A program made the translations under genes and the position numbers. A stretch of 64,000 nucleotides of DNA from Octopus vulgaris (lineage: Eukaryota). The stretch is taken from contig OX597839.1 in the NCBI GenBank assembly GCA_951406725.2, forward strand, positions 12,772,001 through 12,836,000, read 5' to 3'. The notes beneath the pieces were generated by a model. That model had not been told where the DNA came from. It ran no database searches and saw only the letters and a list, made by a program, of their open reading frames with translations. Below, piece after piece: positions 3,481 through 55,300 of this stretch (position 1 is the first letter of the stretch; each line of letters opens with the position of its first letter).

Positions 3481-4130
3481 AGTAAATAAATGGAGTTGAA
3501 CGAAGATGTCATTAAAATTCTTTTACTTTCGACATATGTTTCGAAGCCAACATTGGTTTTATTCCAGAGGAATAAACGGTGTAAAATGCAATCTTCTCAT
3601 CAGGAAAGAAAGAGAGTCTATCTCAACAACAAGACATTATAACAATTACGATGACTGCCTAAATGATAAATAGAACGTTATTAAGTATTTAAAAAAACCA
3701 TTTAGTAGATTTGACGTCAGATACTAGGAAGAGAAGGGTAAAAGAAATAATAAGTAGAGAACAAATAAAGAGGGATACGTTGGTTGAAAAAATGTTCAAA
3801 GGCTTAGAAGTAGATTTCTCTATTGAAGTAAAGTGCACGTTAAACTAACTGTTCAAACTATAAAGACTGGCGAAATCACTTATATGAGTTAAAGGTATGT
3901 TTCTGCCAGTGTTTACATTTGTAAGATCGCTCTATAAAATCAATGTTGTCTTCGAAACATATGTCGAAAGTAAAAGAATTTTAATAACATCTTCGTTCAA
4001 CTCTATTTATTTACTTATACTACACAAATTACTGCACATTAACCTGGAGTTTCTACCTTTGAATAGGTCGCTTCATCCGTGTTACTTGTATGTTAACGGT
4101 AAACAAAGGATAATTCATTCATCCATTTAA
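3481..4130 (-). mobile_element. Hammerhead-bearing Penelope-like/retrozyme element, family A, with partial inverted copy
   Basis: TA-flanked. 3481-3557 recurs inverted at about 3941-4015. Full hammerhead on the minus strand. Confidence 0.75.
3526..3608 (-). ncRNA. Type I hammerhead ribozyme (family A)
   Basis: Minus strand reads ctttc-CTGATGA-gaag...cttc-GAAAC-atat-GTC-gaaag; all three stems pair. Predicted cleavage after the C at 3531. Confidence 0.85.
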
Positions 4131-4789
4131 ATATATATATATATATATATATATATATATATATATATGCATGTACATATATATGTATGTATATATACAC
4201 ATACACGTATATGAGTGCATGCACGTGTATGTGTGTGGGTATGTGTAGCATTCCAATACGGCATGTGTTTGTTTTCAATCAGGAAATTCGTTGCAAACGA
4301 TAAACTGAGTTTTGGCAGATTGAATAATGACATCAGTAAAATTCTGGCCAACAAAATTGTATACAAACATCCCCACCAGTTATTCAAGAGATAACATCAT
4401 CGCAGACCTGTCCAATAGACTTGTTCTGAAGTATTTATTAAAAGAAACTTACAGAAGTCAACAGACAGCAAAAAAGAAAAAAGACGGGAGCAAACAACAA
4501 GTAGAATTACAAAGAGGAAAGGTGGGGAGAGAGAAAGAGACAACTTCGGGTTTCATTCATTATCAGCTGATGAGGTAAACCAGATGCACTAAATATGAAA
4601 TATCTGCAACACGAAATGATCTAGCTTCTACTAGCAGAAGGCTAAATTATGTTAGATAACACTCGTATTTATCCACTCATCCCATTTCTCTGTCTTTGCT
4701 TCCCTCTCTCTCTCTCTCTCTCTCTCTCTCTCTCTCTGTCTCCCTCTCTCTCTCTCTAGATATCTCTCTCAGCTACACACATCCATAGA

Positions 4790-5075
4790 AGCTGTTTAAC
4801 CAAAGCCTTGTGAGTGGATTTAGTAGAAGGAAACTGAAGGAAGTCTGTTGTGTATATATTTATATATGTATGTATATGTTTGTGTATCTGTGTTTGTCCC
4901 CCCCAACATCGCTTGACAACCAATGCTGGTGTGTTTACATCCCTGTAACTTAGCAGTACAGCAAAAGATACCGATAGAATAAGTACTGGGCTTGCAAAGT
5001 CCTGGGGTTGATTTGCTTGACTAAAGGTGGTGTTCCAGCATGGCCACAATCAAATAACTGAAACAAATAAAAGAA
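4790..5075 (+). mobile_element. SINE, 5'-truncated
   Basis: Body and tail (ccagcatggccacaatcaaataactgaaacaaataaaag) match the SINE family. Confidence 0.7.
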
Positions 5076-5383
5076 TACATATATGATATGATATGAATAT
5101 ATATATATATATATATATATATATATATATATATATATATATACACATATATATATATACATATATATATATATATATATATATATATATATATATATAT
5201 ATATATATATATATAAACAAATCAAAATTGCGATAAAATAAAAATAATTATAATCGCTGGTATTACTAACACAAGCCATATATTTTTCATATATCAGTAC
5301 ATTAAGGCGAAATATGTGCTAGGAATACAGAAGCTTGATAAATTAAGTGAAATGAAGATAAAAACATTTACTAAACCGGTAAT

Positions 5384-5455
5384 TCTCAGACTGCAGTTTC
5401 TTTCTTTTCAGCAATAAAGATAATTTATTTGCTCAGGGAGAATTCTTCAGTGAGA
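5384..5455 (-). ncRNA. Type I hammerhead ribozyme (family B, copy 1)
   Basis: Minus strand reads tctca-CTGAAGA-attct...agaaa-GAAAC-tgca-GTC-tgaga; the base of stem II is imperfect. Confidence 0.75.
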
Positions 5456-51468: not shown

Positions 51469-51528
51469 CTACGTACTGCAGTTTCAGTTATTAATATCAC
51501 AAGGATATCTGTAACTTCATCAGCGTAG
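51469..51528 (-). ncRNA. Type I hammerhead ribozyme (family E, GUA triplet)
   Basis: ctacg-CTGATGA-agtta...taact-GAAAC-tgca-GTA-cgtag on the minus strand. Confidence 0.87.
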
Positions 51529-52268
51529 TTTGTTATGAGCATAATATGCTGTACTAGATGAAAAACGGTACCGGAGTCCCGCATGCAAAAAGTACAACCT
51601 ATTACGTTCGGATGTATCTTTCGAATGCCTCTACTTTTGGCGCGCTGATAATCGAAAAACTAGCCTGCAGCCAATAAATTAGCAGCAGTCAATTTATCGG
51701 TTTGAGAACATATATTTCATGTTTAAAAATTAAGGGTAGAAATTGATATTAGTCAATTAAAACCAGTGGTCTAGCACATTAAAAAGAATCCGAAGATTAA
51801 AATATTTATATATACCAATTAAGGTATATACCATTTAGTATATTTCTTTTGTCTCATCCATTGCTTTAGGTCGTGGTGAATTTTATTTTTATTTGAGAAC
51901 AAAATCTTTGTGGAGAATGGCGATTTGACGTCTATATCTAGCATGTTGACTGTCCACCTTTTCGTGTTCAGTCCTTAATTGGTATATATAAATATTTTAA
52001 TCTTCGGATTCTTTTTAATGTGCTAGACCACTGGTTTTAATTGACTAATATCAATTTCTACCCTTAATTTTTAAATATGAAATATATGTTCTCAAACCGA
52101 TAAATTGACTGCTGCTAATTTATTGGCTGCAGGCTAGTTTTTCGATTATCAGCGCGCCAAAAGTAGAGGCATTCGAAAGATACATCCGAACGTAATAGGT
52201 TGTACTTTTTGCATGCGGGACTCCGGTACCGTTTTTCATCTAGTACAGCATATTATGCTCATAACAAA

Positions 52269-52328
52269 CTACGCTGATGAAGTTACAGATATCCTTGTGA
52301 TATTAATAACTGAAACTGCAGTACGTAG
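52269..52328 (+). ncRNA. Type I hammerhead ribozyme (family E, inverted copy)
   Basis: ctacgctgatgaagtta...taactgaaactgcagtacgtag read directly; predicted cleavage after 52323. Confidence 0.87.
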
Positions 52329-55300
52329 GTAATTATTCCATTTAGTATATTTCTTTTGTCTCATCCATTGCTTTAGGTCGTGCTGAATTTTATTTTTATT
52401 TGAGAACAAAATCTTTGTGGAGAATGGCGATTTGACGTCTATATCTAGCATGTTGACTGTCCACCTTTTCGTGTTCAGTCCTTAATTGGTATATATAAAT
52501 ATTTTAATCTTCGGATTCTTTTTAATGTGCTAGACCACTGGTTTTAATTGACTAATATCAATTTCTACCCTTAATTTTTATATACAAATATATATATATA
52601 TACAAATATATACATATATATATATATATATATACATATATATACATATATATACATATATATATATATATATATATATATATATATATATATATACATA
52701 TATATACATATATATACATATATATATATATACATATATATATATATATATATATATATATATATATATATATATATATATATATATATATATATATATA
52801 TATATATATATGTATATATATATATATATATATATATATATGTATATAATATATATATATATATATATATATATATATATATATATATATACATATATAT
52901 ACATATATATATACATATATATATATATATATATATACATATATATATATATATATATACATATATATATATACTAGCAGTATCGCCCGGCGTTGCTCAG
53001 GTTTGTAAGGGAAATAACTATAAAGCATTTTTAGAGAGTTATAGCCAAAAAATAGCAAAAAATGGAAAAAAATTATGGTAAATTTTTTTTTGAGAGTTAA
53101 AAAAGGATGGAGTTGCGTCCCCTAGACAGTTTGTGGTTCGTGTTTCTGATTCTGGACCCCATGTCAGAATTTATCGATTTTTTCAGAACTGGGGGAACTT
53201 TTCAAAATTTTGGCTGCGTTAGTTTTGAATTATGACATTGGGCTATATGTGTGTCAAGTTTCATCAGAATCGGTTGAAAGCCGTGGTCAGGGTGAGGGTA
53301 CAAGCAAACAGACACACAGAAACACGCACAGACAAACTGCCGTTTATATATAGAGAGATATACATATATATATATACATACATATATATATATACATATA
53401 TATCTATATACACATATATATATACATATATATATATACATACATATATATATATACATATATACATATATATCTATATACATATATATATATATATATA
53501 TATATATATATATATATATATATATATACATATATATATATATACATATAAAACTTAAAGGACTGACCACTAAAAGTGGACGGTCAATATGCTAGATATA
53601 GACGTCAAAATCTCTATTTTCCACGAAGAATGTGTTCTCAAATAAAAACTCAGCACAACCCAAAGTGTAAAAAATAAGCAAGACAAGTGAAAATATATAT
53701 ATATAAGAAAATAGTTGACAATGGAATAAACTATTATCTTTTGAACCTCACTAGCTTACAGGTGTTTTCACTATAAGATGTGGTGGACTCATATTTGAGT
53801 GCTTCTGTAATACCCTTCAGCTTCATCAGAGCTTGGAACATGAACTGCTTTTTGTTTGGGAAGACAAATACATTTAAGCATATTTGCAGGAAAGTATTAC
53901 TGATGTGGATGCATATGTAGTTCATTTTAAGATGTTTTTCGTCTCTTCTCTCTCTAGGTAACTTCATTTCCTCCTCACTTGTTCCTGTAACTCTTTTTCT
54001 TTCTCCTATTGTATAATATGCACACTTAACCCTTTTGTTACCAACCTGGCCAAAACCGCCTCTGGCTCTGTAGTACAAATGTCTTGTTTTCCTAAGTTTT
54101 GAATTAAAATCTTCCACCAAACCTTAGTCACAATTTATGTTCCTAACACTAGCTTAATGGTAACTAAGTTATTTTATTAAATTCTTTGTTATATTTAAAA
54201 TAATTGAAAGAAACACAGAGCATCTCAACAGAAATATGGTAACAAAAGGGTTAAATATATACATTCATGTTTGTGGAATCAACTCATAATAGATATTTTG
54301 TTCATCTTTCATTTTTATTCCAGAGAAGATGAAACTGATGCTGTACCATTAAACAATTCTGAAACCAATACAGAGCCTGTATGCTTTGAAACGTCCATCA
54401 GTAACTCTGATACATTACCTAGTCTTAGTGAAACTCCAGAAACTAAAGCAGTGCCCATAATTAATGAAAATGACAGAAATGATGACGATTCAATACCCAA
54501 GCCTACAAAAGAAAGCCACAATAAAATAAGGGCAATACCCAAATCTAATGAAGATAGCGACAGTAAAACTGATGCAGTACCTCAACCTTGTGATTATCCT
54601 AGCAAGAATACTCCTGCCATGTTGGTCCTAAAGGAACTCGTAGCTATAATATGCAAGCAACACTCCTTCCCAGAGAGGATCCCAGAAAAGAATTTGACCC
54701 AAGATGCCATAAAGATGATCTATTTCACAACCAGCCAGACTCCTCTTATAATGATCCTCATTCAGAAGGAGCAAAAGCTCTAAACATGTTTTCACAATGC
54801 TGTATGCTCCAAACTTTTTTATATTTCCTTAGATAAATTCATCATCATTACTTTGCATTGCTTCCCTATCATAATTTCTTAATTATCATTACTTATTATG
54901 CTGTCATCATTACTTTTCCATCGCTTATTTATCATCATTACTCTCTTATTATTATTTACAAATATTCTTTGTAATCATTACTTTCCCGTTATTACTTCAT
55001 CATCATTACTTCTCCATCAGTCTTTGTCAATCATTACTTTGTCATCATTGCTATTTTTACTTTGTTAGCAACACTTCGTCATTATTATTTTGTTATCCTT
55101 ACTGTTTCATCCTGAATTACCTACATCATCTACATCATCGCTTTGTTTTCCCTTTGTCATAATTCATCATCATCTGATTTGGAAACTTACTTGTACCAAT
55201 ACAACTCTCCCATTCCAAGTATCCCGAATAAGCCATATGGCATGCACATCTGGCCTGGGTTTTAATCACCTTGGTCTTTCATGAGCTAAAATATCTCACT

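Follow-up and report, generated by a model that had tools for sequence, protein, structure and literature searches.

Five elements flanked by TA repeats and carrying type I hammerhead ribozyme motifs, termed here E1 to E5, are present in the stretch of Octopus vulgaris DNA that we analysed (contig OX597839.1 of assembly GCA_951406725.2, positions 12,772,001 to 12,836,000; the whole 64-kb stretch is referred to as the window). The original prediction, made from the sequence letters alone, placed five divergent families of non-coding elements at these positions, and the coordinates and the unit lengths of E2, E3, E4 and E5 in the window (397, 568, 533/531 and 507 bp, respectively) were recovered as described. 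The elements are of two kinds. By its sequence, E1 is what is left of an autonomous Hydra-type Penelope-like element (PLE), namely its 3′ end, truncated and inverted, and E2–E5 are classified as non-coding retrozymes without long terminal repeats (LTRs), i.e. non-LTR retrozymes, an already described class. We consider it likely that E2–E5 were copied into (TA)n by the reverse transcriptase (RT)/GIY-YIG protein of such PLEs from multimeric RNA templates.

Hammerhead elements of the window

The elements and their parts are as follows ('long' and 'short' denote the two types of 3′ end in the ribozyme sense).

3481–3937, minus strand: E1, inverted arm running to the 'short' 3′ site in (TA)n, assigned to the 3′ end of an autonomous Hydra-type PLE; 3287 candidate loci, other copies entering an open reading frame (ORF) for RT and GIY-YIG
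3876–3935, minus strand: E1, last 19 codons and stop of the PLE endonuclease ORF; the translation matches the ORF ends at loci L197, L198 and L201
3526–3608, minus strand: E1, type I hammerhead with stem I CUUUC/GAAAG and palindromic loop III AUAU (descriptor match)
3934–4130, plus strand: E1, direct arm with half a hammerhead (at 3954) and tail, 'long' 3′ site; tail internally deleted compared with other copies
5214–6176, minus strand: E2, retrozyme, 2.4 copies of a 397-bp unit, uninverted, 3′ end at unit position ~175
5384–5455, minus strand: E2, hammerhead copy with an A-A mismatch at the base of stem II (descriptor match)
5781–5852, minus strand: E2, second hammerhead copy (descriptor match)
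12275–13010, minus strand: E3, retrozyme, 1.3 copies of a 568-bp unit (588 bp in the family), 'long' 3′ end at 12275
12570–12661, minus strand: E3, hammerhead with the U4C core variant CCGAUGA (descriptor match)
48759–50208, minus strand: E4, left arm, 533/531-bp units, three hammerheads (cores starting at 48987, 49520 and 50051), 'short' 3′ end at unit position 159
50200–51197, plus strand: E4, right arm, two hammerheads (cores starting at 50306 and 50839), 'long' 3′ end at unit position 289
51129–51182, plus strand: E4, tail motif YCACU(U)GGU–AU-rich hairpin–ACCCU, also found at 52535 in E5 (plus strand) and at 12333 in E3 (minus strand)
51308–51824, minus strand: E5, left arm, hammerhead core at 51523, 'short' 3′ end at unit position 174
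51822–52578, plus strand: E5, right arm, 507-bp unit (508 bp in the family), hammerhead core at 52274, 'long' 3′ end

The hammerhead descriptor (type I, GAAAC-N4-GUH, stem I of at least 5 pairs) matched 11 motifs in the window, namely 1 in E1, 2 in E2, 1 in E3, 5 in E4 and 2 in E5, in agreement with the number predicted, and found no match in any of 200 dinucleotide shuffles of the window from which TA, CA and TG runs had been removed. The five stem I pairs were also those listed in advance. The Rfam search proposed as a check returned no family at its gathering score in the window, and identification of the motifs thus rests on the descriptor and on covariation. The proposed check of stem covariation had a positive outcome: among nine distinct E5 variants, both sides are changed in three pairs (two of stem I and one of stem II), with a covariation score reached by none of 500 shuffles (a control in which the relatedness of the copies is uncorrected), and E3 contributes one compensatory stem II variant. 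From this sequence evidence, we regard the 11 hammerhead motifs as real.

The core CUGANGA had been assigned to all five elements; E3 has CCGAUGA (U4C) instead, both in the window copy and in all E3-type motifs from the fetched loci; CCGAAGA was seen as a further variant in one autonomous family. Stem II of E2 has an A-A mismatch at its base in nearly all copies. Loop III is 6 nt long in most E5 copies and is palindromic in 33 of the 40 stem I/II types from all fetched loci. The predicted energy of stem III is +2.4 to +2.9 kcal/mol in the monomer (unstable) and −6.4 to −11.1 kcal/mol in the self-duplex (stable), and this type of architecture is said to cleave as a dimer (PMC4209133). The ribozymes of these elements are predicted to cut mainly as dimers.

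Across the 2.8-Gb genome, 540, 2231, 1166 and 1371 candidate loci were found for E2, E3, E4 and E5, respectively, dispersed over many contigs, and the best copies of the families are 96–99% alike. Together with TA at the 3′ ends and compensatory stems, these numbers bear out the prediction of a diverse, recently mobile, TA-targeted hammerhead set. E2–E5 consist of tandem units with one type I hammerhead per unit and a GC content of 32–38%. Because the longest ATG frame within one unit is 26–52 aa, the non-coding character ascribed to all five elements holds for E2–E5, but not for E1. No LTR-type structure was seen in E2–E5; the primer-binding site and polypurine tract were not searched for as such. 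E3, which had been described as tandem, has the 568-bp unit but a single ribozyme and only 1.3 units; the family norm is 588 bp, from which the window unit differs by a 20-nt deletion. The five families are not fully separate: E3, E4 and E5 have a common tail motif, and E4 and E5 also share 54 nt at 70% identity.

As a kind of system, the set is not new, since retrozymes and PLE hammerheads have been reported previously (PMC7229834; PMC8557442; bioRxiv 10.64898/2026.07.22.740005). E2–E5 resemble metazoan non-LTR retrozymes (Cervera and de la Pena 2020, PMC7229834; Li, Clavereau and Pollet 2026, bioRxiv 10.64898/2026.07.22.740005) in their low-GC, non-coding tandem units, type I hammerhead, short stem III and palindromic loop, as well as in the presence of autonomous PLEs in the same genome. 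Their units (397–588 nt) are longer than the 170–400 nt given in the former study and lie within the 51–972 nt of the latter. They differ from these published retrozymes in having stem II regions of 31–61 nt, the U4C core (E3) and TA targeting, and the two fixed internal 3′ ends and head-to-head arms of E3–E5 are not described for retrozymes in the available portions of either source. Circular RNA is known for retrozymes in published systems (PMC7229834), whereas E2–E5 are known here from genomic DNA. Our literature search on cephalopod retrozymes found none, and the supplements of PMC7229834 and of the preprint may list some; that on octopus Penelope hammerhead ribozymes yielded PMC8557442 only. 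Many further hammerhead families were seen in TA repeats (loci L354–L380, L245, L238, L141 and others), including a 560-bp family at L245, and a sister family of E4 is 63% identical over 264 nt and has another stem I.

Element 1 and the autonomous Penelope-like elements

E1 retains the end of an RT/GIY-YIG ORF, namely its last 19 codons and the stop, and is thus not the non-coding family it was predicted to be. The 3287 candidate loci obtained by the genome search with E1 include copies that extend into this ORF, in which the RT is followed by a C-terminal GIY-YIG endonuclease, and locus L151 is a partial tandem of the family with a unit of ~3.18 kb. The inverted arm of the window copy ends 50 nt past the cleavage site. 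Both the canonical hammerhead and the insertion into (TA)n are present in the family.

The E1-family ORF contains DKT, RWL, YRDD/YHDD and YIG motifs, has CxxC and CxH around the conserved E and N residues and lacks CCHH; RWL lies at the aligned place of the Hydra RWK. The GIY-YIG model of Pfam matched this ORF with an E-value of 0.0034, which falls short of the curated cut-off, and Hydra-type RTs are not recognized by Pfam, so that the identification rests on motifs and alignment. The assignment to Hydra was made by comparing motif order by eye with the supplement of PMC8557442 (motif list in its section 11), not by an RT tree. The CxCX5C linker is absent from the E1, P0001 and P0002 ORFs and present in a 727-aa family, for which reason E1 is called Hydra-type (a divergent subclade) rather than a textbook Hydra member. 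An Asn-rich (AAT)n stretch was observed between the RT and the endonuclease in the E1 family (e.g. L197 and L198), where the zinc linker would be expected; N-rich inserts are known in rotifer PLEs (PMC3846280).

Hydra PLEs with hammerheads and (TA)n targets have been published, among them Hydra-1_Obim from Octopus bimaculoides (Craig et al. 2021, PMC8557442). The E1 family shares with the Hydra clade described there a single ORF with RT and C-terminal GIY-YIG, the DKT, CxxC and CxH motifs, the canonical hammerhead, (TA)n targets, partial tandems, an inverted 5′-truncated arm and a tail at one end. The E1 subclade differs in having RWL for RWK and an Asn-rich stretch in place of the CxCX5C linker; its tail is ~150 nt long, compared with 30–40 nt in the Hydra clade, and its unit is ~3.2 kb.

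Genome-wide, 10497 candidate relatives of the E1-family RT were found, and unbroken ORFs of 778–908 aa are numerous among them. The 727-aa family is very uniform and has an intact ORF with all Hydra motifs (RWK, DKT, CxCX5C, CxxC and CxH); its protein is 33% identical to a 778-aa close relative of E1. Several autonomous Hydra-type families (L234–L253, L334–L353 and L384–L413) contain dozens of unbroken, near-identical ORFs of 899, 778, 727 and ~840 aa, and some autonomous Hydra-type copies lie in full tandems of 3.36–3.62 kb. The short interspersed elements (SINEs) of the window look like octopus SINEs. Relatives of the PLE ORF include a named Argonauta protein, and window positions 1580–1897 (minus strand) contain a decayed Hydra-type RT fragment (30% identity, E-value 1e-7). 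The genome also has a Neptune-type PLE family with an intact, high-copy 781-aa ORF, which likewise ends in TA; the copies at L284–L303 have a 3′ region of ~1 kb with a candidate variant ribozyme core near its end.

Insertion anatomy, and the proposed mobilizing enzyme and template

The anatomy of 121 insertions, including the window copies, was examined (39 of E2, 21 of E3, 36 of E4 and 25 of E5), drawn from the 40 best-scoring candidates of each search; two E4 arrays spanning more than one locus (both short/long) and one duplicate E3 locus were omitted from the count. Read in the ribozyme sense, the arrays have 3′ ends at fixed positions inside the unit, 160–310 nt downstream of the cleavage site and not at it. 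They lie at unit positions 156–159 and 283–289 in E4, 197–207 and 296–311 in E3, and 174 and 254–263 in E5, and at a single position (~175) in E2. The 5′ ends of the arrays are variable, and the arrays contain up to 10 units. TA (at least 60%) follows 137 of the 166 3′ ends, compared with 11.7% of window positions, and the expected enrichment of genomic copies next to TA was thus observed. The flanks of E2–E5 are themselves TA repeats, which mask any target-site duplication.

Head-to-head insertions of E3–E5 combine one long and one short end in 38 of 45 cases; the others are one long/long, one short/short and five with an odd end, one of which was produced by a clustering cut and is short/long when traced whole. 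For the 40 classifiable inverted insertions, this pairing has P = 7e-10. Inverted insertions of autonomous Hydra elements show the same combination in all 21 measurable cases, the window E1 included, and several 'direct' copies bear a tiny opposite arm. The one-ended tail of inverted PLE insertions is known (PMC3846280; PMC8557442, legend of Fig. 2), and in vitro work on a PLE protein has identified the tail as the gap between two internal RT start sites, the protein cutting and extending both strands and using unprocessed RNA (PMC11167929). Because long plus short ends are the 'tail' signature of PLEs, target-primed copying by a PLE enzyme from both target strands is likely. E3–E5 are like the Poseidon PLE of Anolis (Frangieh et al. 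2024, PMC11167929) in having two internal RT starts that set the tail and an AT-rich target, and the cutting and extension of both strands and the dispensability of ribozyme cleavage, as seen in vitro for Poseidon, would be further likenesses. In that study, the start sites did not differ between the two strands, whereas the inverted insertions studied here pair long with short almost always.

In the mechanism that we propose, the arrays would be transcribed in the ribozyme sense, and the PLE protein would probably bind the hairpin motif downstream of the ribozyme and cut both strands of the TA repeat. Reverse transcription would start inside the RNA at two fixed sites, the long one on one target strand and the short one on the other, and would proceed back through the ribozyme site for a variable length, giving non-integer tandem arrays; where both cDNAs survived, they would be joined head to head. 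An existing array would act as parent, its uncleaved multi-unit transcript being the template, and arrays longer than the parent would call for an occasional circle or template jump.

A possible recognition element lies directly before the long end of E3–E5, where the three families have the motif YCACU(U)GGU–AU-rich hairpin–ACCCU in common. At least 10 further variants of this tail motif were found in the fetched loci, most of them directly before TA, and we consider it a candidate RT recognition element. A short TA-adjoining element at window positions 3214–3457 carries the same tail hairpin, CUACUUGGU–long AU hairpin–ACCCUU, but no ribozyme, and is probably a tiny insertion of another retrozyme family. 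Between the short (+37) and the long (~+110) ends of the 727-aa Hydra family lies CCACUGGU...CCACCUU, and E5 likewise has CCACUGGU...CUACCCUU. These shared tail letters are a lead on the partner enzyme, not proof. In the retrozyme at L238, an E5-like tail is combined with a ribozyme and a short end that belong to an autonomous Hydra family, and TA-adjoining remnants at window positions 25981–26078 and 53551–53648 are ~86% like the short end of E5. Two candidate parents were rejected: at L202, what looked like an autonomous parent of E4, with a PLE ORF and an E4-like ribozyme behind it, turned out to consist of two neighbouring insertions, and an E3-like tail behind a 722-aa family looks like a separate small insertion, not a parent of E3. 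A more specific and more tentative idea is that a portable hairpin was captured by the retrozyme guild and recruits the active 727-aa Hydra enzyme in trans, with a dimeric enzyme priming both TA strands, its two subunits starting at the long and the short site, respectively; we would give this somewhat less than an even chance.

The state of the template can be approached through the alleles of the units. Unit divergence is 0–0.4% within an insertion compared with 0.6–2.0% between insertions. Among the alleles at sites covered at least three times, 69 are fixed in the insertion, 80 are private to one unit and 21 occur in some units only; alleles that are at once fixed in an insertion and restricted to it number just 4. 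Signals at E4 positions 160–185 and E5 positions 175/263–265 were traced to TA flank aligned to the unit, and a terminal-unit allele at E2 position 165 to an artefact of gap placement; these columns were dropped from later allele counts. In both arms of the insertions at L016 and L165, a variant recurs at the same register counted from the 3′ end, with terminal units lacking it, and at L100 subfamily haplotypes are mixed within the array. These same-register variants, mixed haplotypes and partial alleles argue that one monomer circle is not the usual template, unless units were converted after insertion. The usual template is most likely an uncleaved multi-unit transcript, in line with PMC11167929.

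The same mobilizer could instead have read a ribozyme-cut, re-ligated monomer circle several times round, as in the model of Cervera and de la Pena and as the original prediction hinted. Copying through the intact cleavage junction up to 10 times (L155 and L177) is what this model leads one to expect, as is the fixation of most shared alleles per insertion, for example a 20-nt deletion in 3 of 3 units at C5:4529513. Moreover, 5′ truncation would shrink arrays unless something lengthened them, and retrozyme circles are known in coral, mussel and axolotl (PMC7229834). The 21 partial alleles, the terminal units of L016 and L165 without the variant of the next unit in both arms, the mixed array at L100 and the scarcity of alleles both fixed and insertion-unique stand against a circle as the template, which we therefore judge rather unlikely, though the strongest of the alternatives.

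Several observations weigh against copying of retrozymes from multimers by a Hydra-type enzyme. The 69 fixed alleles and the near-identical units within insertions fit a circle or a uniform parent, and the partial alleles could come from gene conversion after insertion. The choice of best-scoring candidates biases the sample towards young, long copies. Among the fetched PLE loci (Neptune and Hydra), no autonomous element showed unit-length homology to E2–E5, and the link of the 727-aa family to E5 consists of one 8-mer plus a 7-mer. Minimum-energy folds come near the full hammerhead for two of the five window ribozyme stretches (E4 and E5), and 8 of 9 Xenopus retrozyme dimers stayed uncleaved in vitro (bioRxiv 10.64898/2026.07.22.740005). 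Finally, E2 departs from the two-end pattern, having one 3′ end and no inversion among its 39 insertions.

Because E2 lacks the two-end pattern and inversions, it may use another enzyme, and the retrozymes, E2 above all, could have been moved by the Neptune-type PLE of this genome, whose 781-aa family is intact, high-copy and ends in TA, or by a long interspersed nuclear element (LINE). E2–E5 have no tail or unit homology to the Neptune loci, their long stem II and palindromic 4-nt loop III resemble Hydra families, and the composite at L238 is Hydra-derived in its ribozyme and short end; we thus hold such an enzyme to be unlikely.

Fold-back self-priming, possibly on an antisense template (PMC3846280), would produce inverted arms without priming on two strands. 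Alleles are mostly common to the two arms (83 allele observations in both, compared with 4 recurring in one arm only), and 11 of 46 junctions overlap by at least 5 nt, both of which would suit fold-back. However, 30 of the 46 junctions overlap by 2 nt or less, which argues against fold-back as a general route. Either arm may be the longer, yet the ends are always of opposite type in such cases; at L016, the short-ended arm extends further 5′ than the long-ended arm in the same register; and in the window E4, the right arm carries a variant in two units that is absent from the left arm, which indicates that two RNA molecules can serve as templates. Fold-back is, in our estimate, improbable. Unequal crossing-over that expands a stranded PLE terminal repeat where it lies, a route discussed by Li et al. 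2026, would account for variants common to non-adjacent units in L155 and L161, as expected of local exchange, but it can be largely dismissed given dozens of unlinked arrays with one 3′ phase, variable 5′ ends, head-to-head arms, TA on both sides and near-identical units, and given that none of the examined E2–E5 copies extends into a PLE ORF.

Other features and significance

Contigs from runs guessed to be RNA, a source that cannot show expression, ends or circles, cover E4 and E3. On E4 (window positions 48771–50208), three such runs from three studies show plus-strand T>C at 13 of 17, 15 of 17 and 11 of 14 changed places, which is A>G in the ribozyme sense, as A-to-I editing would give. 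Four of the T>C sites (unit positions 52, 55, 334 and 336) double as genomic alleles, and no T>C skew was seen in a fourth guessed-RNA run (one contig) on E4, nor on E3. A fixed A-to-G excess in genomic copies (10 versus 2 for E4 alone, P = 0.006; 39 versus 36 for the four families pooled, P = 0.10) was not used as evidence. We take these data as a hint only of A-to-I editing of the ribozyme-sense strand of E4.

Elsewhere in the window, positions 25405–36026 and 52974–63581 form a duplicate of ~10.5 kb at 98–99.6% identity, 27.5 kb apart, which is either a recent segmental duplication or an assembly duplicate. Both copies begin with a 370-bp element in TA (25405–25776 and 52974–53344) in which CUGAUGA is present without a hammerhead and whose ends we take to be like those of non-autonomous Helitron-type elements. 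A 162-bp unit repeated 3.7 times (23868–24484) adjoins a long TA array and has no hammerhead core. ORFs for LINE-type RT/endonuclease, with one or two breaks each, lie at 9632–11320, 13255–16372 and 20581–23713, and one of them ends at the TA array beside E3.

The elements are thus real, recently mobile and of known kinds; what the analysis contributes is an anatomy in which the ends connect retrozymes with the PLE reaction, together with candidate enzymes and a candidate cis signal. The movement of animal retrozymes is still a matter of hypothesis in the literature, which argues from co-occurrence and terminal-repeat homology, as in the recent linking of retrozymes to PLE terminal repeats (bioRxiv 10.64898/2026.07.22.740005), and which has proposed rolling reverse transcription of circles or local tandem growth. 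This octopus genome brings together young, near-identical insertions among thousands of candidates, the two-site end signature of PLEs, a tail hairpin, phased variants and intact candidate enzymes, and four points are each directly testable in this set: enzyme, cis signal, the pairing of a long with a short end, and circle versus multimer. If the hairpin does recruit the 727-aa Hydra enzyme, the enzyme and the cis signal that mobilize animal retrozymes would be named, and the circle would not be the usual template for insertion.

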